Positions 11,508 through 59,078 of a stretch of DNA of 64,000 bases are shown here, piece by piece. The notes beneath the pieces were generated by a model. The model did no database searches. It saw only the letters and a list, made by a program, of their open reading frames with translations, and had not been told where the DNA came from. Source of the DNA: Sedimentisphaerales bacterium (lineage in GTDB: Bacteria > Planctomycetota > Phycisphaerae > Sedimentisphaerales > SM23-30); NCBI GenBank assembly GCA_963666285.1, contig OY762711.1; one strand, given 5' to 3'. Both the position numbers and the translations under genes were made by a program. Every line of letters begins with the position of its first letter. The first letter of the stretch is position 1.

Positions 11508-11581
11508 GGGCGGTTAGCTCAGTTGGCTAGAGCACCTGCCTTACAAGCAGGGGGTCACAGGTTCAAGTCCTGTACCGCCCA
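11508..11581 (+). tRNA. tRNA-Val(TAC), CCA not encoded
   Basis: Cloverleaf GGGCGGT...ACCGCCCA; anticodon arm CCTGC-CTTACAA-GCAGG; T loop GGTTCAAGTCC. Confidence 0.97.
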
Positions 11582-11584
11582 TTT
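11539..11584 (+). repeat. attL core (46 bp, 3' part of tRNA-Val)
   Basis: CCTTACAAGCAGGGGGTCACAGGTTCAAGTCCTGTACCGCCCATTT, identical to 59033-59078. Confidence 0.95.
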
Positions 11585-11656
11585 CTTTTAATCCCGGTAA
11601 TAGCAAAGAGTTATGATTGACTATTATCGGTTAATAGCACCCTTGTAAGTCTTGTA

Positions 11657-11679
11657 AAAAAGTACACTGTGTACTTTTT
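11657..11679. repeat. Palindrome / candidate integrase arm or accessory binding site (left end)
   Basis: AAAAAGTACAC-T-GTGTACTTTTT; the 16-mer AAAGTACACTGTGTAC recurs at 58898-58913. Confidence 0.6.
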
Positions 11680-11701
11680 GTACTTACAGAAGGCTATAGT
11701 C

Positions 11702-12853
11702 ATGACCAATCAGACCCTCCCCTCTTATTGTCGTAAAAGAAATTCAAATGGAAAATACTATGCTTTTGTCGCTATTAATGGCAATCGAATCAGCCTGGGG
11801 CCAGACGGAACAAAAGCAAAACAGAAGTATGATAGAATAATTGCCGAATGGCTGGCAAATGGCAAACATCTCCATTTTGATGATTCTGCTATTACTATAA
11901 AGAACCTATGCACAAGATATCTTGAATTTGCTTATGAATATTATTCTGGATCTATTGAATACGAGAATTATGAACGGGTGAGCAAAATACTGATAAAGCT
12001 GTACGGCACAACAGAGGCTGATGATTTTGGCCCTAAAAAGCTAAAGGCAGTTCGTGAATGCATGACTAGAAAAGGCTGGCAGCGAAAATCTATCAATAAA
12101 CAAATCCAAAGAACCAGAGCTATTTTCCGATGGGCAGAAGCAAACGAGTTGATAGAGCGGGGAATGTCGGAATATCTGTCAACACTTGCCCCGCTAAAGA
12201 AAGGCAGATGCCCGGGAGTACCTGAAGGTAAAAATGTTAAACCGGCACACATCGAAGACATTGAAGCAATCCAGCCATATGTTAGTCGTCAGGTTTGGGC
12301 TATGATACAATTACAGCTACTTACAGGAGCCAGGCCGGGAGAGATTGTTCTATTGAATCTAGCTGATATTGATCGTTCGGAAATTGTATGGATATTCAGA
12401 CCTGAAAGGCATAAAAATGAATATCGAGATATCGAACGGGAAATCTACATTGGCAAGCAGGCACAAAGTATCATTACAAACTTTCTTTTTGGAAAACATC
12501 CCAGCGATTACATATTCTCCCCTGCCGATGCTAACAGGGAAGCAAAACAAAGAACCGCAGCGGGCAGCCGACGAAAAAACCAAAAAGCTAACCTAAAATC
12601 AACTGACCGAACTATAGGCAGTCACTATACAACTCACTCATATAGAAGAGCAATTAAACGCGGTTGTGAAAAAGCCGGTGTTGAAAGCTGGAGTCCAAAT
12701 CAACTTCGTCACAATGCGGCAACAATTATTCGTAAAGAATATGGACTGGAAGCCGCTCAAATTATACTTGGGCACACTAGAGCAGATGTAACCCAAATAT
12801 ATGCTGAAAGAGATAGAGAAAAGGCCGTTCAGATTGCTGCGAAAATTGGCTAA
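11702..12853 (+). CDS. Tyrosine integrase (Int1)
   Basis: GARPGE, WSPNQLRH, ILGH, TQIY catalytic motifs; adjacent to attL. Confidence 0.95.
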   Translation: MTNQTLPSYCRKRNSNGKYYAFVAINGNRISLGPDGTKAKQKYDRIIAEWLANGKHLHFDDSAITIKNLCTRYLEFAYEYYSGSIEYENYERVSKILIKLYGTTEADDFGPKKLKAVRECMTRKGWQRKSINKQIQRTRAIFRWAEANELIERGMSEYLSTLAPLKKGRCPGVPEGKNVKPAHIEDIEAIQPYVSRQVWAMIQLQLLTGARPGEIVLLNLADIDRSEIVWIFRPERHKNEYRDIEREIYIGKQAQSIITNFLFGKHPSDYIFSPADANREAKQRTAAGSRRKNQKANLKSTDRTIGSHYTTHSYRRAIKRGCEKAGVESWSPNQLRHNAATIIRKEYGLEAAQIILGHTRADVTQIYAERDREKAVQIAAKIG

Positions 12854-13007
12854 CAGATACTTATAAAAAAGTCAAGAATAGTTCCGGCATCAGTTCCGCA
12901 GAAAATATGCCGAGATATGCCAAAGACACCCTGAACTTTAACAGGTCATTAATGCTTGGCCTGATTTGTCTATGAATGTCAAAAACGATATATTAGTTTT
13001 TGTCAAT

Positions 13008-13225
13008 TTATAATATGCCGATTAGATACTTGCTAACGCCTTCAACTAATACTCTATGCCTGAACTGAGTCCATTGTTCCATATCTGTGTACACATCTTA
13101 ACTACCTCCGTATCAATTAGTTATCTTTTTTTGACCGATAACTAAATCTACGTCGGCATTTTTATAAGAACGCTACACTTTTACTCCGCCACTGCAGGCG
13201 CCACACTTTTGCCCCGGCGTTTACA
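13008..13225 (-). mobile_element. IS21-family left-end remnant with truncated istA
   Basis: - strand TGTAAACGCCGGGGCAAAAGTGTGGCG...GGCGGAGTAAAAGTGTAGCG (TG end with reiterated subterminal repeat), then GGAGG + GTG at 13094 encoding MYTDMEQWTQFRHRVLVEGVSK. Confidence 0.7.
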
Positions 13226-13480
13226 AGCATTTTCACTACCTCCTTCTACGTGACCCTTCTTAAGCTGTTTCCTGGGGACTTTTTAGCCCCTCTTGACACC
13301 ACAAACGATATACTCACTTGAAATTAACCAGCCAGACGCTTGCGTTACCTGCCTGTGAGATACTCAATTACCTTTTGATGTTCATTAGTTCATAGCAACT
13401 AGAAATCACTCCCAATTTATAATTAACACACCAAATAGACTTTCGGGTGATTGTAGAATTTGTATCACTTAATGGCATAA

Positions 13481-13717: not shown

Positions 13718-15199
13718 ATGAAAATTCTACTAATCAATCCGGAAGTCCCTGACACATTCTGGAGCCTTAAGAATGCCTTGGAGTTTGTTTCCAAGAAAGC
13801 CCTTCTTCCGCCTTTGGGACTACTAACAGTAGCGTCAATGCTGCCAGAATCGTGGGAAAGGAAGCTCATCGATATGAATACTACCCGCTTACTGGATTGT
13901 CACCTTAAATGGGCGGACATGGTCTTTCTGACGGGAATGGCCATCCAGAAAAAATCCGTCGACCAGGTTATTGAGCGATGTAAAAAACTGAACTTAAAAA
14001 TTGTCGCTGGTGGCCCGCTCTTTACTGCGTTTCCGGAGGGGTATTTAAATATTGACCATCTTGTCCTTAAAGAAGCGGAAATCACGCTGTCTGCTTTTTT
14101 GAAAGATTTGGGAACAGGACACCCTGAACGCTATTATACTACGCGTCAAAGACCAGACTTGAAAGGGACGCCCATCCCTCAGTGGAATCTGATTAATATG
14201 AAAAAATATGCTATCATGGGCATTCAGTATTCCCGAGGATGCCCGTTCGATTGTGATTTTTGTGATGTAACAAGGCTTTTCGGACATGAGCTTCGAACCA
14301 AAACAACAGAGCAGATTCTCGCAGAGCTTGACAGTTTGTACGATGCCGGATGGCGGGGAGAATTATTTTTTGTTGATGATAATTTCATAGGCAAAAAGAC
14401 CATCTTGAAAAAAGAGCTACTTCCGGCGATGATTCAGTGGATGGAATCGAAAAATTATCCATTCTGTTTTAATACCCAAGCCTCCATGAATCTTGCAGAT
14501 GATGAAGAACTAATGAACTTGATGGTTCAAGCAGGGTTTGATTGTGTTTTCGTTGGTATCGAATCGCCGGACGAGATAAGCTTGACCGAGTGTAACAAAT
14601 CTCAAAATACCGGTCGCGACCTTGTAGCTGCAATCAAAAAGATCCAACAGTTCGGTTTACAGGTTCAGGCCGGTTTCATAGTCGGATTTGACAGTGACAC
14701 CCCGGGCGTATTTGACAGAATGATAAATCTGATTCAGAAAAGTGGAATAGTAATGGCCATGGTGGGGTTACTCAACGCGCCGCGTGGAACCAAGCTCTAC
14801 AAGCAGATGATGACTCAAAATCGGCTAACAACCCCACCGACAGGAGACAACATGGATTGTACCATGAATTTTATTCCGCAGATGGAGATAAATGAACTTC
14901 TGGGCGGGTATCAGAAAGTACTCAATACGATCTATTCGCAAAAAAACTATTACGGACGGATTCGAACATTTCTTGAAAATTATAATTTCAACGACACGAT
15001 GCCACTCAAAATTCGGTGTTCAGGTGTTATAGCATTTTTAAGGTCAATGTGGCGTATCGGTTTGATCGAAAAAGGAAAGATTCATTATTGGAAACTGATA
15101 CTCTGGTCGCTCAAAAAACCTCAAAGACTGCCATTAGCTGTGCGTTATTCAATCTATGGTTTTCACTTTCGTAAGATGTTAAAAAAGCTTTATCCTTAA
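13718..15199 (+). CDS. B12-binding radical SAM protein (DUF4070 type), copy 1
   Basis: PPLGLLTVA, SRGCPFDCDFC (CxxxCxxC), VDDNFIG, GFIVGFDSD. Confidence 0.9.
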   Translation: MKILLINPEVPDTFWSLKNALEFVSKKALLPPLGLLTVASMLPESWERKLIDMNTTRLLDCHLKWADMVFLTGMAIQKKSVDQVIERCKKLNLKIVAGGPLFTAFPEGYLNIDHLVLKEAEITLSAFLKDLGTGHPERYYTTRQRPDLKGTPIPQWNLINMKKYAIMGIQYSRGCPFDCDFCDVTRLFGHELRTKTTEQILAELDSLYDAGWRGELFFVDDNFIGKKTILKKELLPAMIQWMESKNYPFCFNTQASMNLADDEELMNLMVQAGFDCVFVGIESPDEISLTECNKSQNTGRDLVAAIKKIQQFGLQVQAGFIVGFDSDTPGVFDRMINLIQKSGIVMAMVGLLNAPRGTKLYKQMMTQNRLTTPPTGDNMDCTMNFIPQMEINELLGGYQKVLNTIYSQKNYYGRIRTFLENYNFNDTMPLKIRCSGVIAFLRSMWRIGLIEKGKIHYWKLILWSLKKPQRLPLAVRYSIYGFHFRKMLKKLYP

Positions 15200-15457: not shown

Positions 15458-16069
15458 CTATCTTTTCCTGTGTAACAGTCCCACTGCACCCAAAGCCAGT
15501 ATACTCATAGTTGCCGGTTCAGGTACGCATACTTCTCCTGCCCAGATATCTGTCACATTGGTCATGCCGGAGACGGTAAAAGTCAGACGTACAAAGTCAG
15601 GCTGAGGACGTATTTCACCTTGCAGAAGATATGACCAGACGCCGTTGCCATCTATTGACCAGGACTCTGAACCAGTGAATATCCCTTCAGCTGTATCCAG
15701 AACCGATTCAACATTGTCTACCGTACTGACTGTATTGCCGGTAATATAAACAAAAACTTTTTTGTACAGATCGGAGCGACTAACATTGTCCAAATCCAAT
15801 GAAATGGTTTCATTCTGGATACCTATAACTCCTACAAAATCAGTGTTTTCTAAAAAGTTAGAAGCCCAGTGGCTGGCATCATCTGGCGGAGAAATCTGTG
15901 AACTGCCGCCGATAATATCCGATGACCACCATCCAAAAGCATAGTTTTCATCTACCTCTGAGTTCCACCAGATCGGTGATTCAGGAGGTGCGGTTACCAA
16001 AGCAGCATTGGCAAAACTCGCTATTGTGAATATCAAAATCACAACTGCAGAAAATAATTGTTTCATCAT
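15458..16069 (-). CDS. PEP-CTERM sorting domain protein
   Basis: Signal peptide; C-terminal VPEPATMSILALGAVGLLHRKR. Confidence 0.9.
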   Translation of the reverse strand: MMKQLFSAVVILIFTIASFANAALVTAPPESPIWWNSEVDENYAFGWWSSDIIGGSSQISPPDDASHWASNFLENTDFVGVIGIQNETISLDLDNVSRSDLYKKVFVYITGNTVSTVDNVESVLDTAEGIFTGSESWSIDGNGVWSYLLQGEIRPQPDFVRLTFTVSGMTNVTDIWAGEVCVPEPATMSILALGAVGLLHRKR

Positions 16070-16113: not shown

Positions 16114-17539
16114 GTAAACATTCGCACTTTTAATAGTATAATTAAGCCGCAGTAGCCAGAGCATCCAGCAGAAACGTATATTTTTTATCATGAACGGCCG
16201 AATTACCGAACATATATTTAATTCTTTCGCTCCAAAGCTCTCTGCGGAGGTCAGCGATAGCATCGGCAAAGCTTGGTGTCTTTTTGTGCTGATACCAGGG
16301 CTGGACAAAGAAGTATTGTTCATTGGGTTTCTTGGTCAGATACCTCAGCCAGACCATAGAGTACAGCCAGAGTCCAAAACCTGCGGCTCTTTCTGGTCCT
16401 TTGCCTTTATATGTCTGCGGATGCTGAGCACCGAGCAACTGTTTGGTGTTCTTGAATGTATCTTCAATAGCCCAGCGGTCGGCATAACAGGCCAAAACGT
16501 CCTCAGCAGTCATAGCAATATCTGTAGTAAAGAAAAAGTCATCTTTTTCCTTACCTTCAGGATCTCGACTGACAACGACAAGGATTGGTTTGCGAGTTAC
16601 CTTATACCAGAGAGCTACACGGGTATATACCAACCTCTCAATAATCGTACCTCTCTGGCAAAATTCAACCATTCTCCAGTTTTTGACATGGGCAGCCATT
16701 TTTTTCAGTTTGGCCAGTTTTTGACCTCTGCAGCGAGGTCTGCCACGCTTTTTCTCTTCAACTTTAGGTGGCAGCTCAAACAGGTCGGCATTACGTCTGA
16801 TTCGGGAGATAATGGTAATATTCTCAAGGTTCTTTCCGGCCAGAGTTGCGTAAAAACCGTCTGCAACAAGCCTTATCTGCCTGTTTGGAAGCCATTGGCA
16901 TATTTCATTTATAATTTGTACCGCCAGTTCAATCAAGGATTCTTCTCCTTTGCGATGCAATCTCATATTGACCGGCAGTGCCAGAGGTTCTCCACCCCAG
17001 GGCGGTTGGATTTGCAGGCATGTCACTACCAGATTCAATCCCCAGGCATAAACAACCTTCTTGTTTGTAGAACGAACGGCATCTCTCCAGAATCCGGCTC
17101 CGTTGACTTTTGGACCGCTGTGATGGAACAGAGTGTCGTCCATAGACAGAGTTATTATTCCTTTTGGGTAGAATCTTTGCACCAGGACCAAAGTAAGCAT
17201 TTTCCACATCTGACTCAGAGACCAGCGGCAATCTGGAAAGAAACGGTGGTAAGCATCGTGAGCTCTCTTGCCCAGCGGGTCTGCAAAGGGAATTATGCCT
17301 GTTATCGTACGACGAGTAGTGCACAATATCCAGCCAGTTACTATCCGGCAGAAGATTTGAGCTCCAGGTTCTGTAAATATTGGAAAAAATTGTTGAATAA
17401 ATTGCGTCCATGTCGAATAATATTCATAGTACATATCGGCCTCCGTGTCCTATATTTGTTGACATTAAAGACATCGGATCGCCGATATTTTTTTGTTCAT
17501 ATTTTCAAAATTTAACCCTCAAAATGTGCGAAAGTTTAC
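16114..17539 (-). mobile_element. Complete insertion sequence (IS701-like DDE transposase), 1426 bp
   Basis: Terminal IRs GTAAAC(A/T)TTCGCAC; 5-bp target duplication TCATT at 16109-16113 and 17540-17544. Confidence 0.85.
16142..17434 (-). CDS. DDE transposase (IS701/IS4 superfamily)
   Basis: SMDDT, VADGFY, YADRWAIEDTFKNTK (YREK-like) motifs. Confidence 0.9.
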   Translation of the reverse strand: MYYEYYSTWTQFIQQFFPIFTEPGAQIFCRIVTGWILCTTRRTITGIIPFADPLGKRAHDAYHRFFPDCRWSLSQMWKMLTLVLVQRFYPKGIITLSMDDTLFHHSGPKVNGAGFWRDAVRSTNKKVVYAWGLNLVVTCLQIQPPWGGEPLALPVNMRLHRKGEESLIELAVQIINEICQWLPNRQIRLVADGFYATLAGKNLENITIISRIRRNADLFELPPKVEEKKRGRPRCRGQKLAKLKKMAAHVKNWRMVEFCQRGTIIERLVYTRVALWYKVTRKPILVVVSRDPEGKEKDDFFFTTDIAMTAEDVLACYADRWAIEDTFKNTKQLLGAQHPQTYKGKGPERAAGFGLWLYSMVWLRYLTKKPNEQYFFVQPWYQHKKTPSFADAIADLRRELWSERIKYMFGNSAVHDKKYTFLLDALATAA

Positions 17540-18106: not shown

Positions 18107-19459
18107 GTGGAAAATGCCAACTGCATTATTATGCGAATTGACACCAAAGGCCGAATCAAGTATTTCAATGAATATGCCCAAAAAATCTTCGGTTACAGTC
18201 TGAAAGAAATTATCGGCAAAAATGTTGCGGGAAAAGTCATCCCAAAAGTTGACAGGTCCGGCCACCCGTTTTCTGAAGTGGTTAAAGCTATTCACCTTAA
18301 TCCAAAACGTTATCAGAATTTTGAAAACGAGACCATCAATAAAACAGGTCAATTCTTCTGGATATCTTGGGCGAATAAAGCTATTCTGGACCGGTATGGC
18401 AATGTAAAGGAAATACTATGTGTCGGTCATGACATCACACATCGTAAATATATGGAAAATCAGTTAGAACTGCTGGCTACTGTTGTACGCAACTCCAATG
18501 ATGCTATTATCGTTCTCGATATAAAAGGCAATATCATCTCCTGGAATCAAGGTGCTGAGCAAATCTATGGTTATAGCCAGGCCGATGCAATTGGTATGAA
18601 TATTAAACGACTTGTGCCGGAATATAAACAAGATGAAATACGATTATTGATAGAAAGATCGCTCAATGGCGAAGTGATCAAGTTATTTGAGACCCAACGA
18701 ATCACAAGCACCAACCAAATACTAGATATTTCCCTGACCGCCACATTAATCAAGGATGAGCATGGGCTGCCATTTGCTATCACTATCACCGAACGAGACA
18801 TCACCGAGCGTCGACGTATGGAAAAAGAGATTCTGGATATCACCGAAAGAGAAAGAGAACAACTTAGCCAGGATATACATGATGGCATGGGACAAGCATT
18901 AACCGGTATAGCAGTCAAGTGTAAAGGCCTCGCCTTGAAGCTCAAGCATCAGGCCCCGTCGGAAATGAAAGATGCTTTGATCATAACGAGACTGGCTAAT
19001 GAAGCCATAGCCCACACCCGCGACCTGGCCAGACTGCTCTATCCAATTGATATTCAAACCGGCGGGCTGGTATCGGCTTTAAGCTCGCTGGCAGCCGACA
19101 CAAAAAGAGTAATGGGGGTAATGTGCAAATTCAGTTGCAGTAAAAATGCCTCAGTGAATAACATGAAAGAAGCCAAGCAAATATATCGTATTGCTCAGGA
19201 AGCAACAACAAATGCAGTCCGACACGGCAAGGCTGCTCATATCAATATATCACTACGAATAACAAAAACGCATGCAATACTTTCAATAATAAACGATGGT
19301 TTGGATTTTCCCGTGCTCGAATCAAAAAATAAAGGGTTTGGCCTGAAAATCATGGAGTATCGCTCTGACTTGATTGGCGGGACCCTAGATATAAGCAAGG
19401 GTAAAAAAGGCGGTACTGTGGTAACCTGTATTATTCCAAGAGAAAGGCAGGTAAATTAA
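18107..19459 (+). CDS. Cytoplasmic double-PAS histidine kinase (HisKA_3 type); true start may be up to ~100 bp upstream
   Basis: Two PAS/PAC domains, IHDGMGQAL H-box, RIAQEATTNAVRHG, GFGL; frame is open back to 17990. Confidence 0.9.
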   Translation: MENANCIIMRIDTKGRIKYFNEYAQKIFGYSLKEIIGKNVAGKVIPKVDRSGHPFSEVVKAIHLNPKRYQNFENETINKTGQFFWISWANKAILDRYGNVKEILCVGHDITHRKYMENQLELLATVVRNSNDAIIVLDIKGNIISWNQGAEQIYGYSQADAIGMNIKRLVPEYKQDEIRLLIERSLNGEVIKLFETQRITSTNQILDISLTATLIKDEHGLPFAITITERDITERRRMEKEILDITEREREQLSQDIHDGMGQALTGIAVKCKGLALKLKHQAPSEMKDALIITRLANEAIAHTRDLARLLYPIDIQTGGLVSALSSLAADTKRVMGVMCKFSCSKNASVNNMKEAKQIYRIAQEATTNAVRHGKAAHINISLRITKTHAILSIINDGLDFPVLESKNKGFGLKIMEYRSDLIGGTLDISKGKKGGTVVTCIIPRERQVN

Positions 19460-19463
19460 TCTG

Positions 19464-20162
19464 ATGACACCAGCAAAAATAAATCCATCAAGTACAATCA
19501 ACAACAAGAAAACCATGCAGATATTCATTGTTGATGACCATCCGGTTGTCCGTGACGGTCTGTCTACAATTATTAACCACGAAAAGGATATGAACGTCTG
19601 CGGCGAGGCAGAAAGTGAATACCAGGCAATTAAAGATATTTCTCGTCTTATGCCAGACATCGCAGTGATTGATATTTCACTCAAAGACTCAAACGGTATT
19701 GACCTAACTAAAAACATCAAAATCAATTATCCTAAAATAGAGATTATCGTCTTTTCTGTACATGATGAATCAGTATATGCTGAACGTGCCCTGATCGCAG
19801 GTGCCAAGGCATATCTAATGAAAGATACTATCTCAGAAAATATTATTACAGCTATTCGCTCTGTCGCAAAAGACAATATATATATCAGTACAGCTATGTC
19901 CAGAAAACTGTTGCATCGCTTCACCGGTGAAAAAACTGCAATAAAAGGATTGTCCATCGAAAATCTCAGCGATCGAGAACTTGAGGTATTCCGTCTTACA
20001 GGCCAGGGATTCAAAGCTGGTGAAATTGGCAAACAACTATTTCTGAGCGTTAAAACCATCGAAACTTATCGTGCCAGAATAAAAGAAAAACTAAACCTCC
20101 CAAACGCCTCGGCGCTCCTGCAATATTCGATTAAATGGGCAAAAATGGAAAAGGATTCATAA
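19464..20162 (+). CDS. NarL/LuxR-family response regulator
   Basis: VDDHPVVR receiver domain; LSDRELEVF...LSVKTIETYR HTH. Confidence 0.93.
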   Translation: MTPAKINPSSTINNKKTMQIFIVDDHPVVRDGLSTIINHEKDMNVCGEAESEYQAIKDISRLMPDIAVIDISLKDSNGIDLTKNIKINYPKIEIIVFSVHDESVYAERALIAGAKAYLMKDTISENIITAIRSVAKDNIYISTAMSRKLLHRFTGEKTAIKGLSIENLSDRELEVFRLTGQGFKAGEIGKQLFLSVKTIETYRARIKEKLNLPNASALLQYSIKWAKMEKDS

Positions 20163-20455: not shown

Positions 20456-20671
20456 TCATTGTTTTCGATTATTAACTTCATCTTCAGCTTGAAACCAGTT
20501 TGTTTCGGACCGACCTTGAATATAATCACTTAATCTATAGATTTCATAAGCTCTTTCGGCAATTCGGCGGTGTCTTGCCACACACCCATCCTTTTCATTC
20601 CCAGATGTATCAACTTCGCTAGCAAAATGAGCTTTTGGATTATACTTTCTTTTTAATAGTGTTTTTTTCAT
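20456..20671 (-). CDS. DUF2934-like small protein
   Basis: RIAERAYEIY...GRSETNWFQAEDEV. Confidence 0.75.
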   Translation of the reverse strand: MKKTLLKRKYNPKAHFASEVDTSGNEKDGCVARHRRIAERAYEIYRLSDYIQGRSETNWFQAEDEVNNRKQ

Positions 20672-23420: not shown

Positions 23421-23425
23421 ACATT

Positions 23426-24364: not shown

Positions 24365-24445
24365 TAGATCGTGTAATATTAATTAAACTTGATATTTACC
24401 TTATACAAAAAATGTAATGAACAAATGTTGTTTTAAAAGGACAAA

Positions 24446-47523: not shown

Positions 47524-47609
47524 GATAAGCCCCTTTGTTGAACATTTACATATTCTGTTTGGTTAAATATAATTTATATTTCGATTTGTTTACTTAGATT
47601 AGTACAAAG

Positions 47610-48672: not shown

Positions 48673-48991
48673 ATGAAAATTGCAATAATATCAACAGGAC
48701 CCAAAATAGATGATTCGATTGGAACAGTGCCTGATTCGAGTCCCTACTGGCTGTTTGTTGCTCTTGAAACAATGAAATGTGAGGCAATGCCAAACCCTTT
48801 AACAAGCATAGGTGGACCCGCCAAACTACAATTGATCATTCAACAATAGCCAAGTAAAATATATTTTTGCTGGCGGTTACGGCACTATCCAATTAAAAGA
48901 GCTTAAAAAAAACGGAATCAAAGTGCTTTTTGGACTGAAAGGGTCTGTAAGAAAAACCGTTGAAAAATCTCATCGGCGAAACTGTATTTTA
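48673..48991 (+). pseudogene. NifB/NifX-like (Mo-Fe cofactor binding family) pseudogene
   Basis: MKIAIISTG...ETMKCEAMPNP...stop, continuing in another frame as VKYIFAGGYG...GIKVLFGLKGSVRKTVEK. Confidence 0.65.
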
Positions 48992-49730: not shown

Positions 49731-50819
49731 TTACAGCTTTCCCCAATCCAACTCGGATATTCTACTTTCCTGCAATCTGGCAAATTCAGCCATTGATAAC
49801 GGTTCAACATAATGTCGAACAGTGGTCATCAGATTCTTATGCCCGGCCATCTGCTGCACCCAGCATAAATCAAAACCGGCACGCTTCCACCTGGAAATAC
49901 AACTCTTTCGCAAATCATGCAAAGTGTAAAGATTCCAGCCGATGTTATCAACCAGCCCGGAATTTCGACATATAATACCAAATCTTGTACTGGCCTGATC
50001 GCTACACCGCTGTGTCATATTACCTCTGGCTGAAATATCTCTCACAACAAACTCACCAGAGAGATCACATCTCTGCAAATAACTATACAGAGTATCAAAT
50101 ATGCGTACCTCTCTGCCGTTACCGGTTTTAGTACGCCATCTTTTATCCTTATAGCTATAAACATAGATGATTCGCTTTTCCATATCTATATCACATGGCC
50201 TGAGTCCCAGAATCTCACCTATCCGCAAACCGGCATAATAGCCCAAATACAATATCAAACGCCAAGCATCTGTTGGACATGCCGAGAGTAGTTTTTCGAA
50301 CTCACTTTCTGAGATTACCCGAACAGGTTTCTCATCAACCGATAATTTTAACGGAGCTTTACAACTGGCACGTAATGACCTGCTGGCAGCTCTTGAAGCG
50401 ACCGGATTATCTTTGATATAGCCAAGATCAACTGCCCGATACAACGCCGCCTTCAAAACAGTTAACTCACTATTAAATGTTGATGCCTGTATTCCTGATT
50501 CAATACGCCTGTTGCGATATTGAAGCATCAACTCATAGCTCACATCCAACAGCAAATCAGGCTGAAACATCTCAGTTATCCTTCGATAAAGACCTTCAAG
50601 CTTAAGCACAGTACTTCCCCTTACCTGGGCTGAATAATTATTCAGGTCAAGCTCAACCCAGTCATCCCAAAGTACTCCTTTAGCTCTAACCTTTCGCATC
50701 TTGCGAATTTCACTATAATCTAACCCTTCCGGCAGATAATAAGTCTTTTCCTGACCATTTTCCTGCCAGCGTTCATAATACCGATCTTTTGATCTATCAT
50801 AAAATATTGATTTTAACAT
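49731..50819 (-). CDS. Tyrosine recombinase (distinct from Int1/Int2)
   Basis: GLRIGEI, TKTG, HDLRK, AGH, TVRHY. Confidence 0.9.
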   Translation of the reverse strand: MLKSIFYDRSKDRYYERWQENGQEKTYYLPEGLDYSEIRKMRKVRAKGVLWDDWVELDLNNYSAQVRGSTVLKLEGLYRRITEMFQPDLLLDVSYELMLQYRNRRIESGIQASTFNSELTVLKAALYRAVDLGYIKDNPVASRAASRSLRASCKAPLKLSVDEKPVRVISESEFEKLLSACPTDAWRLILYLGYYAGLRIGEILGLRPCDIDMEKRIIYVYSYKDKRWRTKTGNGREVRIFDTLYSYLQRCDLSGEFVVRDISARGNMTQRCSDQASTRFGIICRNSGLVDNIGWNLYTLHDLRKSCISRWKRAGFDLCWVQQMAGHKNLMTTVRHYVEPLSMAEFARLQESRISELDWGKL

Positions 50820-51222: not shown

Positions 51223-51460
51223 TTCGACAATTCGACAATAAGACTTAAACCTCTGTCAATAAAGCAGATAAAATGTCGAACACCTTTTTCGACATTTCGA
51301 CAATAAAAACTCTTACCACTACCAATCTGGACATGCCAAAACCAATTAGCATTACCAAATCGCTGTTTTAATGTCGAATTGTCGAATTTTGGTTTTAATC
51401 GTTCTGACATTTTATCCCCTTATATATCAATGACTTATCCTTTATTGTCGAATTGTCGAA
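51223..51460. repeat. Iteron-like cluster, putative replication origin
   Basis: Nine TTCGACA/TGTCGAA heptamers, eight of them in tandem pairs with 8-bp period, directly 3' of the primase gene. Confidence 0.7.
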
Positions 51461-51466
51461 TAATTC

Positions 51467-53749
51467 CTAAGAGTACAGAAAAAATACCGGCCCACGCTTT
51501 TTACCTTTGCCATTCCTGACATGCTCCCTAATCCTGCCGACACCTACCTTTTCAAGCTGTTCAAAATACTTGCGTGCCATAGCAGAGGTGTATTTCAGGG
51601 ATTTATGGCGAACCCAATCGCGAACAGTAACCTGACCACCATTATTCTGGATCCAGCGAATATCCTTGATAAATTCTTTCTTATCATCAACCAAAATAAG
51701 ATTGTTAACCTTATAAGCCTGATCCATAAACCAAGAACACATCCTGATAGCTTCGGACATAGTTTCTTCTGAAACCATATCACCACTATGCAAACCATAA
51801 GCAGCTTTTAACTCATGCAGGATAAGAGCAATCCTTGCGGCATAACTATCAGCCTTGCCTAGTATTGACTCCAGTATGCCGCCATGCTTGATAGCCTTAT
51901 CCTTACTCTGGTCATGGAATCTGCCGAACAGACAGGATGCCTCCGGTGAAAACTTCACGGTTTCAGGAGTAACACTATCAACATGCTTCCAACTTCGTTT
52001 CAGAAGCTTCAGATATATACGCTTCAAATCATCGATCAGATATTGAGGTACTCCAGATTCTGTCCATGAAGTTCTTTTGCTCTCAGGAACAGCATACAGA
52101 AACCTCGCCGCCATTCCATTATAAGAGTTTTCACCTCTCAATGATGAAGCCAATACTTCTGGCTGAATAGTACCTACAACACTGACAAATGATTTTTCAA
52201 CAGAGATAGCTGGTTTATCACTACTCTTTCGGTCAACAGTAATTTGACTCGCTCGCCATATACTAAGCCAGTTCTGCTTATCATCTCCACCAGCTTTATA
52301 CTTATTGAATGAATTAAACCATCCAGCTAGTTCATCTCTATGTAAAAGCAGACCATGTGGATTTTCTGATAGTTTGTTGGCTAATGCCTCAACTGTAATA
52401 TCTGATACTATCAACCTCTGAGAATATGGCGGCTTATTGAATTCACCATCAATATCACCTGAACCCTGTAAATCTAACAGATTCTGATGCGATTGATTAA
52501 GAATCAGATTCTCCAGGTCATAAAGAGGCTGCAAGATAGAATTTAATGCCGGGCTTTTACCAACTGAACTTCCCGCCACTAGAGCCCCCCAGACAGCGGC
52601 AGGTTCATACCATCCTTCCTTAACCTGCAATTGCCTGGTGTTACCTATTGCAGCTGAAACCGCACACAATAAAGCCAAAGCTGGCATAGATTCATCACAT
52701 CCAATAGATTCTGCTATACATTCGATTGTTTCTTTTGCCTTTTCCGGCAGGCAATCAGTTGGAAATGGCTTGTTTTCTGTTGCTATATTACTACAAGGCT
52801 TATACTCTTGAGCCTCAGATATAGCTGATAATATCTTGTCAACTATCTTGTCAACAGAAACACCTTTTTGTTCACATTTTTCTATAAAGTCATAAGCATC
52901 TTCACCTGGCTCAGTTATTCCAAGAACGTCCGGGTCAAGTATTCTGATTTCCGACTCTGGTATCATACCATCCAGCAGCCATGCTACATTGTTGGCATAA
53001 TCCATACCAGGATCATCATTATCCGGCCAGATAATTACTTTTTTTCCTGCCAGAATGGACCAGTCTGATTTATCTGAACCATTACTGCCTCCTGCACTGG
53101 TTGTAGCAGGCAAGCCGATACTCCATAAAGCGTCGGCAGTTTTTTCGCCTTCACAGACAAACACCATAGGTACTTTGGCTATTTCAACTGCCTTATATAA
53201 TGGAATATCGCTACTTAAACCTTTAATAACATAGCGATAATCCTCTGTAATCACCTGCCTGAAAGTCTTTACACCATTTTTATCTACTAAACGATATACG
53301 TACAAAACTACCACTTCTGTATCTGGACATTCATATACATATTCATTTTCTATCTTATAACCCTGATATTCGAAAAGTCTTTCAATATCTTCCAGGCTTT
53401 CATACATTTTGTTATCACTTTGTTTATTTATCTGTTTATTGTTTACCGGCATTTTATTGCCCTCCTGTTGATTTGAATCTGAATTAACATACTTAGCGAT
53501 AACTTCTCCTGAAGTCCTGCCTTCGATTTCAGCTAATGCTGTATATACATCACCTTTTGCGCCGCAGGCATAACATTTATAGAACCATATATGGTTATCA
53601 CCCTGAAAAATATGTGCTGATGGGTTGCTGTCATTATGAAATGGGCATCGAAAATAACTGCTGCCCTCATGCCGAAATTCCGCCCCAGCTCTGATTAGAG
53701 TCTGTCTCAAAAATGATTCATCCTGCTGCAATTTAATTTTATTATCCAT
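51467..53749 (-). CDS. Primase/replication protein: CHC2 zinc finger + TOPRIM + DUF3987
   Basis: CPFHNDSNPS..CYACG, VCEGEKTAD, WPDNDDPG, GSSVGKS, DITVEAL, RDELAGW, VGTIQP, GMAARFL. Confidence 0.88.
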   Translation of the reverse strand: MDNKIKLQQDESFLRQTLIRAGAEFRHEGSSYFRCPFHNDSNPSAHIFQGDNHIWFYKCYACGAKGDVYTALAEIEGRTSGEVIAKYVNSDSNQQEGNKMPVNNKQINKQSDNKMYESLEDIERLFEYQGYKIENEYVYECPDTEVVVLYVYRLVDKNGVKTFRQVITEDYRYVIKGLSSDIPLYKAVEIAKVPMVFVCEGEKTADALWSIGLPATTSAGGSNGSDKSDWSILAGKKVIIWPDNDDPGMDYANNVAWLLDGMIPESEIRILDPDVLGITEPGEDAYDFIEKCEQKGVSVDKIVDKILSAISEAQEYKPCSNIATENKPFPTDCLPEKAKETIECIAESIGCDESMPALALLCAVSAAIGNTRQLQVKEGWYEPAAVWGALVAGSSVGKSPALNSILQPLYDLENLILNQSHQNLLDLQGSGDIDGEFNKPPYSQRLIVSDITVEALANKLSENPHGLLLHRDELAGWFNSFNKYKAGGDDKQNWLSIWRASQITVDRKSSDKPAISVEKSFVSVVGTIQPEVLASSLRGENSYNGMAARFLYAVPESKRTSWTESGVPQYLIDDLKRIYLKLLKRSWKHVDSVTPETVKFSPEASCLFGRFHDQSKDKAIKHGGILESILGKADSYAARIALILHELKAAYGLHSGDMVSEETMSEAIRMCSWFMDQAYKVNNLILVDDKKEFIKDIRWIQNNGGQVTVRDWVRHKSLKYTSAMARKYFEQLEKVGVGRIREHVRNGKGKKRGPVFFLYS

Positions 53750-54069
53750 TAAAGTACTCCTTCCTCTCTCAAAAATCTTTCTGTTTCAGTCATACGTTCA
53801 TCTTTGAACTTATCCGGTTTTACTGCCGGAACCTGCATCTGCTCCTGCTGCTCGAAATACTCAGTGTCAGCTTTTGCCAGTGAACTGAAAAACTGCTCAA
53901 TTGCATCTTCTGTCACATATATCTTGCCGCCGATCCGACAATGCTCCATGCGGACAATATTACCGTTGCGAGCCTTCAAACCTCGTCTGCACCACCGCCA
54001 GAATGCGTTGGTACTAGGCTTACTTGGGATCATCTCAACCGCTTCACTTAATGATAGATATGAAAACAT
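53749..54069 (-). CDS. DUF1580-like HTH (excisionase/AlpA-like) protein
   Basis: PSTNAFWRWCRRG...IGGKIYVTEDAIEQF; stop overlaps the primase start (TAATG). Confidence 0.75.
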   Translation of the reverse strand: MFSYLSLSEAVEMIPSKPSTNAFWRWCRRGLKARNGNIVRMEHCRIGGKIYVTEDAIEQFFSSLAKADTEYFEQQEQMQVPAVKPDKFKDERMTETERFLREEGVL

Positions 54070-54346: not shown

Positions 54347-55420
54347 CTATACCTTAAAGGTAGGAAAAAGCTTTCTGAACCTTTCTTCATCTATTTCAAG
54401 GTGACCAACCACAAATCTGAACCTGTATTTTTTCTGCTTATGGTCGAAATAATATGGTTTTTTTCGGCCTACAACTCTAATCCCAATACCTGCCATTCGT
54501 TCCAATAGTTGCCGATTGATGTCATTCGCTATATTTGATGGCTGTTGCCCTTTTCCTTTTTGTAGTTTGAATTCTTTTTGTATATACTTAGTCGTCAAAT
54601 TACTTTCATTATCCAATAACCTATATAGCTTGCTTCCGGTTTTAATAAAAACTTCCTTACATTGACCATCACAAACCAAAGCATATCTATATGCTCCCAA
54701 GCCCAATAGTCTAATTAACTTGAAATCTTCCGGCCAATCTTCCAGATTCTCATCTTTTGGTATCTTCAGACCTTCTTTACTAACTCGTTCATATTCATTA
54801 TCTAAAGCCAATACTACCTCTCTGGCTGTAGCTCCAATCCTGCTATACGACCAGTCTGTAACCGGATAATCAGCCTGCATTGAATCAATCACATCTATCA
54901 TCCAGCCCCAGAAATGCTCATCACCCAGCTTTGCCTGCTCAAGTCTGGGCCACATCTCATCGTGAGCTTCCATGACAACTTCATCATCTGGATGATCTGC
55001 TCTCGGATCAACCCGGTATTGCCATGAAATATACCCCTGCCTATATCTCCAATATACATCTTTGATAAAGTCAATTGCCGCTACCAGGGCAGAGTTATCT
55101 ACCTTGGTAAAACATCTGGCAATATCCTTACCGGCAAAAACCTTCTTCCAGTCAACGAATTTACGGCAATTATCATCAATTATCGATAAACATGCATGTA
55201 ACTGGGAATAATATACCGGAAGCATATCAGTATGAATAATAAAACCGCCATCTTCCTGAATGGCATTGTCCTTTATCTGGGCAGGTAATAGCTCTGATGC
55301 CGCAAATACTCCCTGCTGGACAAAATAATAAAACTTATGCTCATCGGAATACCTTTCGATCTGTGAATACTGACCTGCAAGATATTCCTCTCTGAACTCC
55401 TCAAAACTTTGTTCAAACAT
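54347..55420 (-). CDS. Hypothetical protein directly downstream of Int2
   Basis: 357-aa ORF with a basic C-terminus; no motif recognised. Confidence 0.7.
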   Translation of the reverse strand: MFEQSFEEFREEYLAGQYSQIERYSDEHKFYYFVQQGVFAASELLPAQIKDNAIQEDGGFIIHTDMLPVYYSQLHACLSIIDDNCRKFVDWKKVFAGKDIARCFTKVDNSALVAAIDFIKDVYWRYRQGYISWQYRVDPRADHPDDEVVMEAHDEMWPRLEQAKLGDEHFWGWMIDVIDSMQADYPVTDWSYSRIGATAREVVLALDNEYERVSKEGLKIPKDENLEDWPEDFKLIRLLGLGAYRYALVCDGQCKEVFIKTGSKLYRLLDNESNLTTKYIQKEFKLQKGKGQQPSNIANDINRQLLERMAGIGIRVVGRKKPYYFDHKQKKYRFRFVVGHLEIDEERFRKLFPTFKV

Positions 55421-55456: not shown

Positions 55457-56611
55457 CTAACCTATGTTCTTTGCTATTTCTTTTGCCTTCTCCCGGTCCC
55501 GTTCGGCATATATCTGGGTAACATCTGCCCTGGCATGGCCTAACATTACCTGCGCAGCTTCCACTCCATATTCCTTGCGAATAACAGTACCAGCATTATG
55601 TCTCAACTGGTTCGGACTCCACTTTTCCACTCCGGCTTTTTCACATGCCCTGTGGATTGCCTTGCGATATGAACTGGTAGTATAATGATTGCCTATTGTT
55701 CTGGCAGTCTTGGCCTTACCTGACTTTTGATCCTCACGACGCTTACTATCTGCATTTTTCTGTTTAGCTTCAGCATTGGCTTCTTTCGGGGAAAAAATAT
55801 AATCAGCTTCAAATCTGCCAAACAAAAAGGGTGTCAATATCTCCTGGGCTTTCAAACCAAGATAGATTTCCCGGTCCATATCTCGATGTTGGTTCTTATG
55901 TTTCTCAGGTTTATAAATCCACACCTGCTCAGACCTGTCTATATCCATAATACGAATTATAACAATCTCCCCTGGCCTTGCGGCAGTATATAACTGTAAC
56001 TGGATCATTGCCCATACCTGCCTGCTCAGGTAAGGTTTTATTGCCTCAATATCATCAACTGGAACAGGCTTAACATCTTCACCTTCTGGAATATCAGGAC
56101 AACGGCCCTTTTTCAATGGGATCATGGTAGCAAGATAATCTGCCATCCCCTTTACTATCAGCTCTTTTGACTCCGCCCATCGGAAAATTGACCTGACTCT
56201 CATAACCTGCTTATTGATAGATGAACGCTGCCAGCCTTTTTCGATCATAACCTGGCGAACTGCCTCAAGCTTTTTAGGGCCAAACTCATTGGCATTGGTT
56301 GATCCATACAAGCTTAGAAGTATCTTTACTACAGTTTTATAATTACCATACTCTGTTGACCCTGAATAATTCAACTTAGCGTACTTGAGGTATCTGGCGG
56401 CCATTTCCTGAATTGTAATCGCTGAATCACCTGTCGGAAGGAATTTACCACCTGACAACCACTCTGCGATAAGAGCTTTGTATTTTTCCTTTGCTTCCTG
56501 ACCATCCGGGCCTAAGCTAATACGTTTACCGTTTAGAGTAACATAAGCATAAGTTTTGCCAGATGAATTATTTTTGAGACAATATGATGGCAGACGGGTC
56601 TTTGACACCAC
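55457..56611 (-). CDS. Tyrosine integrase (Int2), close paralogue of Int1
   Basis: AARPGE, WSPNQLRH, MLGH, TQIY; long blocks identical to 11702-12853. Confidence 0.95.
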   Translation of the reverse strand: MVSKTRLPSYCLKNNSSGKTYAYVTLNGKRISLGPDGQEAKEKYKALIAEWLSGGKFLPTGDSAITIQEMAARYLKYAKLNYSGSTEYGNYKTVVKILLSLYGSTNANEFGPKKLEAVRQVMIEKGWQRSSINKQVMRVRSIFRWAESKELIVKGMADYLATMIPLKKGRCPDIPEGEDVKPVPVDDIEAIKPYLSRQVWAMIQLQLYTAARPGEIVIIRIMDIDRSEQVWIYKPEKHKNQHRDMDREIYLGLKAQEILTPFLFGRFEADYIFSPKEANAEAKQKNADSKRREDQKSGKAKTARTIGNHYTTSSYRKAIHRACEKAGVEKWSPNQLRHNAGTVIRKEYGVEAAQVMLGHARADVTQIYAERDREKAKEIAKNIG

Positions 56612-56828
56612 ACAACCTCCTTGCTGATAATGATTTATACATATACATTATATTATCAATCCGATTATACCTTGTCAAGACCATGGAAAACAGTGTAAAT
56701 GAGTCTTCACATATATTTAAATGCCGACATTTTTACACAGCATTTCCAAAGGCCACGCATTCAATACCCCATATAAATATATTAACAACAGATATTTACA
56801 TATCTTTAATATATTGCCACCATAACAA

Positions 56829-56952
56829 TTTTCCTAAAACAAACTACTTTCCTACTTAGGAAAATTATTTATTTTAGGAAATTCGCTATTGATACTTTTC
56901 TAAAAATACGATATATCCTATATAGGAAATTGATATTTTTTAGGAAATTCAC
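56829..56952. promoter_or_regulatory. Tandem operator (66-bp period) built of TTTCCTA/TAGGAAA half-sites
   Basis: TAGGAAA at 56857/56923 and 56875/56941; palindrome TTTCCTA-CT-TAGGAAA. Confidence 0.65.
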
Positions 56953-56953
56953 A

Positions 56954-58027
56954 ATGAGACTAACAGAACAAGAAATAATAGATAAGCTAAACACCCGAAT
57001 AAATGAATGCCTGCCGCTTTCATTAATTGAGGCTGCTCAGGAAGGTAATTACAATACCGATGCTGTAATAGACTTTGCAATTCAAGATGGGCCAAGAATC
57101 AAGGCCGCTATTGAGCTGCTCACCACCGCAACACCAAAGGCAATTATTGAGAAAATCAATACCTTAAAGAATGCTTTAACAGAAAACAGTATGCAGGAAA
57201 TTGTTCCAATGATTGTTGCGCCATACATTGGCAACAAACAGGCAGAGCTACTATCAAAAAACAATATATCATGGATAGACTTATCCGGAAATATGCTTAT
57301 CAGTATCCCTCCCAATATTTATATTGAAAGAACCGGAAACCCTAACAAGTATCCCGATACAGCCCCAATCAAAAAGATATATCAAGGTACTTCATCGCTG
57401 GTAAGCAGAGCATTACTGCTGAATCCAGATGGATTTTCTTCTTTGAATCAGATAGTTGAATTCATTAATGAAAGAAGCGGAAAAATTACTACCGGAACAG
57501 TGTCAAAAGTGCTAAAGTCACTGGAAGAAGAATTACTGATAAACCGAACCAGATCAAACATCTTGGTGAAACAGCCTGAACAATTGCTCGAAAACCTAAC
57601 TGAAGGTTATGCAGAATATGCCAGGAGCAAAAAAGAGAAAAGATACAAATACGAAGTTGAGAATATCGATTCCCTTTGTAAGATATTATCTGATTCGGGT
57701 ATTGATTATGCTAATTGCGGCTTCTATGCGGCCAGGATCAAAGGTTTTGGCATGACCGGCCAGATTACAATATTTATTAAATCAATAAATGACATAATTA
57801 ATATATCAGAAGATAAACAGAACCTAATATGTCCGGATGAAGAATTTGGACAATTGACATTCATTGAATCTAAAAATCCTTGTGTCTGGTTCAACCTGCA
57901 AGGCAACCCAAGCGATAGAATAGTAGATGATCTGGAGCTATATTTAGAAATGGTTAACGATAGGCCAAGAGGCCCCAAAATAGCTAATCAGCTTAAACAG
58001 GTCATTTTAGGGAGAAATAATGGATAA
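56954..58027 (+). CDS. AbiEi-like (type IV TA antitoxin) protein with HTH
   Basis: VAPYIG...ISWIDLSGN motif, HTH ITTGTVSKVLKSLEEE, LYLEM...RG near C-terminus; overlaps next gene. Confidence 0.6.
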   Translation: MRLTEQEIIDKLNTRINECLPLSLIEAAQEGNYNTDAVIDFAIQDGPRIKAAIELLTTATPKAIIEKINTLKNALTENSMQEIVPMIVAPYIGNKQAELLSKNNISWIDLSGNMLISIPPNIYIERTGNPNKYPDTAPIKKIYQGTSSLVSRALLLNPDGFSSLNQIVEFINERSGKITTGTVSKVLKSLEEELLINRTRSNILVKQPEQLLENLTEGYAEYARSKKEKRYKYEVENIDSLCKILSDSGIDYANCGFYAARIKGFGMTGQITIFIKSINDIINISEDKQNLICPDEEFGQLTFIESKNPCVWFNLQGNPSDRIVDDLELYLEMVNDRPRGPKIANQLKQVILGRNNG

Positions 58028-58850
58028 CATGATAATTCAACAACTGGCAGAGCTGGCAAGAGCCTGTGAGAAAAAAGATATCAAACCTATTATTTGTGGC
58101 GGGCTTGGTGTTTATCTCAGTTATTGTAATAAAGAAAACGAAATACAAAATATGATCCGGGCTACCCAGGATATAGACTTGATGCTATGCAAAGAAGACT
58201 TGCTTCAAGAATCCAAAAGAAACGCAATAGCTGAAATAATAACAGATGAGCTTAAATATAGTGTTCAACCTGAAAAACAACTTCACGGCTTCAAAAAAGA
58301 TGACAATATGGAACTGGACATCCTGGTTCCGCCCATTGATGAGCTGACCAAAAAGAATTACAGATTAAGAATTGTGAAATCTATACTGCACGGTCACATT
58401 ACAGAAGAAGCAAAGTTCATTGATGAGGACTTGAACACTATCGAATTATGCAATATTTCAGAAGAATATCGCACCAGTGACATTAGATTATATACACCAT
58501 CTCCAACAAATCTTATGATAATGAAGCTATACGCATTTAACGACAGATGCCAGGGAAAACGCCATGATCCTGATCGGGCTATGGCTCATGCCTGGGATGT
58601 TTATATAATTATCATGCTATCAGATATCGCTGATCTAAAGCCAGGGCAAAAGTTTGTTGCCAGACATTCAGAATCTGAAATACTTCAGAAAACCAAAAAC
58701 ATTGTAGAGAACCATTTCTCAAAGCCTGAACAGCTCGGATGGCAAACGATTCTAAGCAGTTCAAACTTTTATCCAGATACAAGCATGCAGGAAAAAGAAG
58801 AACAGCTCTACCAAGCCACTGCCAGGATTAAGCGATGGTTTGGAATATAG
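58020..58850 (+). CDS. AbiEii-like nucleotidyltransferase (putative toxin)
   Basis: IICGGLGVY, RATQDIDL, MKLYAFNDR...HAWDVY. Confidence 0.65.
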   Translation: MDNMIIQQLAELARACEKKDIKPIICGGLGVYLSYCNKENEIQNMIRATQDIDLMLCKEDLLQESKRNAIAEIITDELKYSVQPEKQLHGFKKDDNMELDILVPPIDELTKKNYRLRIVKSILHGHITEEAKFIDEDLNTIELCNISEEYRTSDIRLYTPSPTNLMIMKLYAFNDRCQGKRHDPDRAMAHAWDVYIIIMLSDIADLKPGQKFVARHSESEILQKTKNIVENHFSKPEQLGWQTILSSSNFYPDTSMQEKEEQLYQATARIKRWFGI

Positions 58851-58897
58851 ACTGACCAATAAGGCTCCTTAATAATAAACCTTACGGACTAATTCAT

Positions 58898-58913
58898 AAA
58901 GTACACTGTGTAC
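58898..58913. repeat. Candidate integrase arm or accessory binding site (right end)
   Basis: AAAGTACACTGTGTAC, identical to 11659-11674. Confidence 0.6.
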
Positions 58914-58958
58914 CCAACACAGCGTAAGTCATTAAAAACAAATGCAAAACATACACTA

Positions 58959-58986
58959 TTGACAAACAATACAGAATCGTTATAAT
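58959..58986 (+). promoter_or_regulatory. Consensus sigma70 promoter pointing into attR
   Basis: TTGACA-N16-TATAAT ending 46 bp before the att core. Confidence 0.6.
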
Positions 58987-59032
58987 ATTTATAAATAAAG
59001 ACTTACAATTGATATAGCTCTTAGAATATTGC

Positions 59033-59078
59033 CCTTACAAGCAGGGGGTCACAGGTTCAAGTCCTGTACCGCCCATTT
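59033..59078 (+). repeat. attR core (duplicated 3' part of tRNA-Val)
   Basis: 46-bp identity with 11539-11584. Confidence 0.95.

Follow-up and report, generated by a model that had tools for sequence, protein, structure and literature searches.

The stretch of DNA analysed here (the window, 64,000 nucleotides; positions refer to it unless a contig is named) is C1:4,832,001-4,896,000 of G000, the 6.35-Mb genome of a Sedimentisphaerales bacterium assembled in four contigs (C1-C4, 41% GC), and it carries a 47.5-kb island in a tRNA-Val gene. This island is a mobile unit that has been transferred between species, and its gene content points to a phage satellite, for which the phages on contigs C2-C4 are candidate helpers. 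The window was annotated with Pfam (52 open reading frames, ORFs), NCBIfam (40 ORFs) and PHROGs (15 ORFs without a metabolic assignment). The attachment (att) sites and other features of the island ends are listed first.

11508-11581 (+): tRNA-Val(TAC), the integration target
11539-11584 (+): attL core, 46 bp, the 3' part of tRNA-Val (its last 43 bases plus 3)
11659-11674 (+): AAAGTACACTGTGTAC motif, predicted arm-type site, ~75 bp inside attL
58898 (+): second predicted arm-type motif, twin of AAAGTACACTGTGTAC, ~120 bp inside attR
58959-58986 (+): putative sigma-70-like promoter, called from a 12/12 consensus match only, which would face int1 across attP
59033-59078 (+): attR core, a perfect 46-bp direct repeat of attL
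59084-59116: displaced tRNA terminator hairpin, after attR

The perfect 46-bp repeats described in an initial annotation of the window are the only two copies of the att core in the genome, even with up to 8 mismatches allowed, and both are at the island ends. No copy was found inside the island or on C2-C4 (the G000 genome was covered and, apart from it, G001-G003 alone), so that tandem elements and an internal att site are ruled out. The distance from att to att is 47,540 bp and the predicted circle is 47,494 bp. The 13-bp core of the arm motif is likewise found just twice in the genome, once at each island end, and an Rfam search returned nothing beyond the tRNA.

Evidence for transfer comes from two related genomes. 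G003, which belongs to the same genus but to another species and is 98% complete, has a copy of ~46 kb inserted at the same tRNA-Val. Its region aligns to window positions 11506-59208 in segments of 99.72, 99.94, 99.64 and 99.27% identity (overall ~99.6%) compared with a mean of 69% for the flanks (12 alignments >300 bp, 13.2 kb; maximum 75.9%), and its terminase small subunit (TerS) is 100% identical to that of the island (among 60 relatives). About 200 of the 235 listed differences between G000 and G003 are within the island, 83 of these in the 49-53-kb backbone, and an insertion sequence (IS) of the IS701 family at 16114-17539 is missing from the G003 copy. The rebuilt tRNA of G003 has the allele of the element, and its attR differs at positions 21, 27, 33 and 38; the changes at 21 and 33 compensate each other as a pair in the T-stem, and those at 27 and 38 match the native tRNA of the second genome, G001. 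This pattern points to integration with crossover near the anticodon loop and displacement of G003's own tRNA end, and suggests that G003 was the recipient. G001 has the unoccupied attB that the initial annotation had proposed to look for: there the tRNA is followed directly by a terminator-like hairpin resembling that 3' of attR in G000. The island thus entered tRNA-Val by site-specific recombination and recently crossed a species boundary as one 46-kb unit, as the proposal of a single integrative element required. Two sets of sequencing data are not independent support, since sequencing run X2 is possibly the origin of G000 and the runs of study P2 carry G003-type alleles (a 12-bp insertion at 54115); X2 and the runs X5 and X9 were available as assembled contigs only.

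The backbone genes lie at the two ends of the island, with the larger group on the right:

11669-12853 (+; 11702-12853 in an alternative delimitation): int1, tyrosine recombinase (PF00589), identical in G003 and 68-87% identical in other variants
49061-49624 (-): terS, TerS of the same family as the TerS of C2-C4
49731-50819 (-): int2, tyrosine recombinase (PF00589), 35-36% identical to the C2-C4 recombinases
51223-51460: TTCGACAA(T) repeated in direct and inverted orientation, a predicted replication origin
51467-53749 (-): primase-helicase-like replicase, CHC2 zinc finger plus DUF3987
53749-54069 (-): 106-aa helix-turn-helix (HTH) protein, predicted AlpA/excisionase analogue, weak DUF1580/HTH_17 match below the Pfam cut-off
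54347-55420 (-): orf357, 357-aa protein without a known family, conserved at 94-100% in variants
55457-56611 (-; 55457-56608 in an alternative delimitation): int3, tyrosine recombinase (PF00589), conserved at 92-98% among variants; identity to int1 66%
56830-56955: 60-nt repeat pair upstream of abiEi, at its promoter
56954-58850 (+): AbiEi_2-like antitoxin plus AbiEii nucleotidyltransferase (type IV toxin-antitoxin, TA, or abortive infection)

The order of the right-hand group is int3-orf357-HTH-primase-ori-int2-terS, and the core from integrase to terS measures 7.6 kb. All three recombinases are full-length, score above the PF00589 cut-off and keep the R..HxxR/NxxR..H..Y motifs. Int1 is likely to be the site-specific integrase, and its variability compared with the conservation of int3 would fit a role for int1 in setting the target site; named relatives of int3 are mostly from Planctomycetota/Phycisphaerae. 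Synonymous changes exceed non-synonymous ones in int2 (32:7) and in the primase gene (26:6), so int2, with its catalytic motifs intact, is under purifying selection. As the island lacks a 96-bp repeat common to the phages and the chromosome (described below), int2 may, we speculate, act on helper DNA or resolve multimers of the island. A minor int2 allele is present in X2 alongside the main one (49845-50382, 44 differences over 538 bp, depth 3.6); together with the clustering of G000/G003 differences in int2-ori-primase it argues for recombination among related elements. A 20-nt inverted repeat (95%; 53703-53722 and 56562-56581) brackets the primase start and the int3 start. The iteron-like repeats of the initial annotation stand in part: the TTCGACAAT cluster is real, with all six copies in the window falling within 51223-51460 (a 14-mer occurs three times in the genome), and the 60-nt pair at 56830-56955 is, as we assume from AbiE biology, more likely an AbiEi operator than an iteron.

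The TerS assignment was borne out by a match to phrog_309 (E 3.6e-25) and by 14 matching phage records, most of them annotated as terminase small subunit; the fold weakly matches Sf6 TerS (Foldseek prob 0.97, E 0.03-0.05; none at E <= 0.001). The addiction-like pair was identified as AbiE: AbiEii matches PF08843 with 27.5 bits (cut-off 22.5), AbiEi was recognised as AbiEi_2-like from Atlas features (0.96), and the antitoxin gene precedes the nucleotidyltransferase gene, the gene order of an AbiE type IV TA system, although PADLOC did not recognise the pair. In agreement with the initial annotation, the Pfam, NCBIfam and PHROGs scans found no capsid, tail, portal, lysis, relaxase or type IV secretion system (T4SS) family on the island, and no gene for capsid-size redirection was recognised there.

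The three small contigs of the assembly, C2, C3 and C4 (65,573, 65,644 and 66,550 bp), appear from their genes to be podovirus-like phages. C4, which was annotated directly, encodes a terminase large subunit (TerL), TerS, an SU10-type portal and adaptor, replication initiators, DnaB, a tyrosine recombinase, a major head protein (weak, E 1.9e-5) and a 4,905-aa DarB-like protein; C2 and C3 were annotated by homology to it. In these phages terL lies upstream of terS, PEP-CTERM and beta-helix accessory genes have chromosomal counterparts, and C3 and C4 have a giant gene of 4,900-5,500 aa. When the packaging and structural genes of C4 were compared with the chromosome, terS alone matched, and in the island alone. 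Island TerS is 54.7% identical to that of C4, 48.4% to that of C2 and 46.5% to that of C3, while C4 TerS is 49.7-53.6% identical to those of C2 and C3. In a maximum-likelihood tree of 17 rows, which left out two later-found island-type TerS (P0173 and P0174), three island-type TerS form a 100/100 clade that is sister to C4 and a 64.9-kb contig (99/99), and island TerS was likely captured from the C4 lineage. C4 TerL has 426 relatives, the best at ~28-33%, which include ~60-kb Vibrio phages and ~100 Stx-converting phages; terminases of the 933W type are classed as headful in the account given in PMC7317114.

The 96-bp repeat has seven copies on C1 and five on the phages (C4:60099-60194; C2:32873-32967 and 43926-44021; C3:41248-41335 and 56613-56704), one of them no more than ~1 kb from each phage recombinase gene, and beside 5/7 of the chromosomal copies lie blocks with homology to accessory regions of the phages. 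It is a candidate att site of the phages. C3 and C1 also have 158 bp in common at 98%. An X2 contig that runs 6,388 bases beyond the first base of C4 would have its start at C4:60,163, inside the 96-bp repeat, so that the end of C4 likely joins its start. No close relatives of C2-C4 appeared in IMG/VR scans. In X2 the depth is 10.7-24.5 for exact C4 contigs, 19-25 for the island and 27-35 for the right flank (these depths are not copy numbers); X5 has the G003-type island at ~40 with almost no G000 right flank, together with related phage contigs (~84-88% identity, depth 10-12), and X9 contains no related phage contigs.

Relatives of the island were found by cluster look-ups and searches on six further contigs, which are distinguished by their lengths alone; for the megabase contigs the adjacency of the island genes is not shown.

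5,914,109-bp contig: int1-type 83%, int3 93%, terS 93%, most cargo 92-97%
983,132-bp contig: two int1-type and two int3-type genes, terS 90%, primase 97%
4,267,471-bp contig: int1-type, int2, int3, AtpG 89%, terS with a 33-aa deletion
352,834-bp contig: int1 and cargo 98-100%
53,757-bp contig: int1-type, radical SAM, regulator, GT4, GH130, PtsI, terS, int2, HTH, orf357, int3
53,966-bp contig: int1-type, radical SAM, regulator

The layout with two integrases recurs on four other contigs, and terS is intact in 3/4 of the further variants in which it was seen. On the 53,757-bp contig both integrases are incomplete, and close counterparts of the N-ATPase, the phosphorylase and the P-type ATPase were not seen; either ~54-kb contig may be an excised circle or a linear fragment. 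The expectation that the same backbone would be found with different cargo is therefore answered in part, in that relatives differ and still have much cargo in common. Scans of IMG/VR gave no locus for TerS, one distant hit for the TerS alignment, one marginal hit for int3 and none for C4 TerL; a JGI metagenome scan gave no locus, and a 400-genome sample of the phylum no close TerS. Among the genomes of the family, relatives of the primase occur in five (outside G003 at 34-37%). Of these small DUF3987-primase elements four lie next to tRNAs (for Arg, Arg, Ser and Asp), and one has an int2-like recombinase (30%). With no terS nearby in the stretches examined, they were rejected as members of the same element family and are distant kin.

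We think it somewhat probable that the island is a large satellite resembling the phage-inducible chromosomal islands (PICIs). It would excise, be copied by means of its own primase and origin, and use its own TerS for headful packaging in unmodified ~66-kb heads of a helper, the podovirus-like phages of its host. Int1 would act on attP, and circularisation would join both arm motifs and set the consensus promoter before int1. The helper would switch on the int3-to-terS operon to give concatemers, and island TerS, derived from the helper lineage, would recruit helper TerL. At 47.5 kb per circle, a headful of ~66 kb would amount to ~1.4 copies. If packaging started from an integrated copy and ran in the direction of terS, part of the unit would be left behind, which implies excision and concatemeric replication. 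Since no capsid-shrinking gene is recognisable, the ~66 kb of the helper would set the size ceiling, and all known sizes of the element, including the two stand-alone relatives of 53.8 and 54.0 kb, lie at 46-54 kb and below the ~66-kb phage genome. Selection for the element would come from its cargo: glucan phosphorylase, transaldolase, phosphoketolase and acetate kinase could provide substrate-level ATP, which the N-ATPase would spend on expelling ions, most likely Na+, and AbiE may stabilise the element or abort phages. The link to C2-C4, for which homology, co-occurrence and size fit speak, seems to us rather better founded than not, and it gives the satellite origin proposed initially concrete candidate helpers. 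A wider generalisation is put forward tentatively, with slightly less than even confidence: a class of 46-54-kb full-head satellites in Sedimentisphaerales that took TerS and a recombinase from ~66-kb helpers, dropped capsid shrinking, filled the head space thus gained with complete bioenergetic operons (rotary Na+ ATPase, phosphoketolase fermentation) and moved these between species, with int2 possibly excising or resolving the helper.

Several results weigh against a satellite of C2-C4. Forcing the seven phage TerS rows together costs 11.1 log units with p-AU 0.052, so that nesting of island TerS in the phage family is favoured, not established. None of 33 clustered regularly interspaced short palindromic repeat (CRISPR) spacers matches C2-C4 or the island, leaving the host of C2-C4 to be inferred from common DNA only, and the tetranucleotide correlation is 0.76-0.80 for the phage contigs compared with 0.91 for chromosome windows. 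C4-type TerL is absent from the G001-G003 assemblies and C4-type portal from those of G003 and G001 (it was found in one of 250 other genomes of the order, at 23%). X2 depth gives no sign of a bloom or amplification of the island or C4, no excised form or attP junction was seen in the assembled contigs, which break at the att repeat, and no pac site was recognised. For int2, int3 and orf357 only putative roles can be given, and one variant has the 33-aa deletion in TerS.

Some of these points would suit a replicative integrative element spread by non-specific routes (generalised transduction of the circle, vesicles or community-driven conjugation), with terS and int2 serving phage interference or being relics: the lack of amplification at sampling, the damaged terS of one variant and the conservation of terS among variants, which at 90-93% is the lowest in the backbone (92-98% otherwise). 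The preprint on tycheposons (bioRxiv 10.1101/2020.12.28.424599), in the part that bears on packaging genes, likewise has ~85% of these elements without them and still spreading. Most variants, however, keep an intact terS related to the TerS of resident phages, and all sizes stay below that of the phage genome. The island has no relaxase, and PF02534 (coupling protein), PF03135 (VirB4) and PF03432 (MOB-P relaxase) gave no match in the near-complete genomes G000, G001 and G003, where positive controls matched; this makes conjugation from within these hosts unlikely, although the genome-wide search covered these three families only. We consider such non-specific spread unlikely, if still a serious competitor. 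It is improbable that the element belongs to a true satellite lineage whose helper lies outside C2-C4 (a chromosomal prophage, say) or that the G000 copy is now immobile. The G000 chromosome does have two more TerL-like loci (C1 ~5.30 and ~5.59 Mb), and further ones occur in G003, but island TerS matches no other chromosomal locus; the G000 island did gain IS701, but the IS separates two genes of the cargo and every backbone frame is unbroken. Far less credible still is the case that the initial annotation had set against its own proposal, two small independent elements around ancestral chromosome, or else an assembly or binning artefact. The paralogous integrases (66%) at opposite ends and in opposite orientation would be expected of two elements, but there is no internal att, the two-integrase layout recurs elsewhere and the cargo is ~99.6% identical between species with 69% flanks. 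Ancestral chromosome is contradicted by the G003 copy and by the N-ATPase, whose beta subunit was found in 2/25 family genomes, G000 and G003, in both via the island (9/25 are >=90% complete and <=5% contaminated, 16/25 fall short), and an artefact by copies that differ at ~200 positions, in the IS and in the attR allele.

Satellite capture of C2-C4 heads, if correct, has to be set beside known systems. A typical PICI has 12-15 kb, about a third of the size of its helper, and PICI TerS directs headful packaging by recognising a pac site of its own (both as summarised in PMC6092414); the initial annotation had put known PICI/P4-type satellites at roughly 10-15 kb. The island resembles PICIs or SaPIs with their own TerS (type B PICI) in the order integrase-regulator-primase-ori-terS with accessory genes past terS, in the tRNA att site, in the lack of structural and lysis genes and in TerS-directed headful logic; the regulator in this conserved order is the HTH protein, whose match is below the Pfam cut-off. 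It differs in size (47.5 kb, ~0.72 of C2-C4 and outside the PICI range), in its three recombinases, metabolic cargo and Planctomycetota host, and in having no recognised capsid-morphogenesis gene. It would therefore work like a TerS-type PICI, and we do not class it as one. SatelliteFinder gave 1,435 PICIs with a median of 9.5 kb and 17 at 20-28 kb, measured from integrase to last core gene (figures from the passages of PMC10085698 on size); by that measure the island would be 7.6 kb, so large PICIs with cargo may be under-counted, which lowers the novelty claimed here, and larger att-delimited satellites could stand in the size lists of published supplements. Three other classes were rejected: P4-like satellites (no psu-delta-sid and no alpha primase family on the island), capsid-forming PICIs (no own capsid, portal or TerL) and integrative and conjugative or mobilisable elements (no relaxase, coupling or T4SS gene on the island; the three conjugation families absent from 3/3 genomes). 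Tycheposons are alike in their tRNA-targeting tyrosine recombinase, replication module and ecologically coherent cargo, and some have terS; the island differs in combining terS with 34.4 kb of cargo, whereas the corresponding passage of the preprint states that tycheposons with terS or the major capsid protein were never seen with extra cargo, which otherwise reaches 'up to 10 kbp or more' (bioRxiv 10.1101/2020.12.28.424599). VEIMEs (PMC9618062) and PICMI (PMC10803314) are described as packaged in unmodified full-size helper heads at ~8-17 monomer copies per head with a monomer of <=16.8 kb (PICMI115 has 6.1 kb and no terS); the island would instead fill a head with ~1.4 copies. EPIPs (11 kb) induce helper excision, according to the summary in PMC12822802. 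No publication on such a satellite-helper set in Planctomycetota was found in a search that covered few subscription journals.

The unusual feature is thus a terS element with a metabolic cargo of 34 kb, the 7.6-kb core being ordinary. Satellites are regarded as small on the ground that they reduce the size of helper capsids, and surveys seek compact cores; if the reading is true, the full volume of a helper head is open to satellite cargo and many large 'non-conjugative' islands might be satellites. C2-C4 and the island would be a candidate satellite-helper set in Planctomycetota, and the island is a concrete recent vehicle for the N-ATPase operon. Its cargo, put at ~36 kb initially, is 34.4 kb (13718-48125), or ~36 kb with spacers:

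13718-15199 (+): B12-binding radical SAM/DUF4070 protein 1
15458-16069 (-): PEP-CTERM protein
16114-17539 (-): IS701-family element (transposase 16142-17434), without counterpart in G003
18107-20162 (+): PAS-PAS HisKA_3 kinase plus LuxR-type response regulator
20456-20671 (-): DUF2934 protein
21150-27713 (+): GT4 glycosyltransferase, GH130 phosphorylase, radical SAM 2, phosphotransferase system (PTS) enzyme I
27947-34817 (-): N-ATPase operon atpDCQRBEFAG; its c subunit has Glu in the first helix and ESTxxY
35000-43558 (-): transaldolase, alpha-glucan phosphorylase, HAD hydrolase, acetate kinase, small unknown ORF, phosphoketolase
43685-46381 (-): type II P-type cation ATPase, ion not assigned
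46688-48125 (-): LapA-domain protein, HSP20, YflT-like stress protein

Glucan breakdown via phosphoketolase and acetate kinase follows established pathway logic, and the cargo reads as breakdown of stored glucan feeding an ion-expelling N-ATPase. Phosphoketolase was found in 3/25 family genomes. The coherent package seen initially holds for the two-component pair and the metabolic genes, which are real, but GC is mosaic (49.6% in the N-ATPase block compared with 39-43% elsewhere) and IS701 is absent from G003; with AtpG relatives of 78-87% identity in many unrelated bacteria, the N-ATPase block was likely acquired as a separate module. The operon has the order atpDCQRBEFAG with AtpQ and AtpR and no delta gene, and F-type ATPase homologues at C1 ~5.81-5.82 Mb make it a second copy beside a typical rotary ATPase. 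In gene order, AtpR, the F-type copy, Glu plus ESTxxY and transfer as a unit it matches the N-ATPase operons described in PMC2881411, and helix-1 Glu with ESTAIY is the full Na+ ligand set given there. The ion is most likely Na+, although the Burkholderia pseudomallei c ring is reported to be H+-selective despite a Na+ prediction from its ligands (PMC5376962, in the part on ion selectivity), and the salt-stress role proposed initially would be no more than a possibility. Lateral transfer of N-ATPases had been inferred from neighbourhoods and two plasmids, GC content pointing to old transfers (PMC2881411, in its section on transfer); in the present case the transfer between species is recent and the integrative element that carried it is defined.

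Some minor observations concern the cargo and the flanks. The histidine kinase (18107-19459) opens directly with PAS at GTG, with no clear ribosome-binding site, and may be N-terminally truncated. A short ORF at the cargo/backbone border (48673-48849, +) has a possible resemblance to a NifB/NifX-type fragment. Right of attR a low-GC block (34.6%; 59288-62303) with Imm21, a REase-ARP nuclease and a PDC-S11-like protein lies outside the island, differs in G003 and looks like a defence hotspot. At the other edge of the window an unassigned 415-aa ORF (205-1452, -) carries HTH_17 at its N-terminus and, further in, short repeats of 21 nt (1037-1204). The CRISPR arrays (C1:3248295-3250718 and 6068784-6071900) have 36-bp repeats and each a gap of ~1.6-1.7 kb; the first we take to be Cas12a-like. 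Two spacers match C1 5,307,714 (1 mismatch) and 5,309,989 (3 mismatches), near the TerL-like locus at ~5.296 Mb, and self-targeting of a prophage there is possible.

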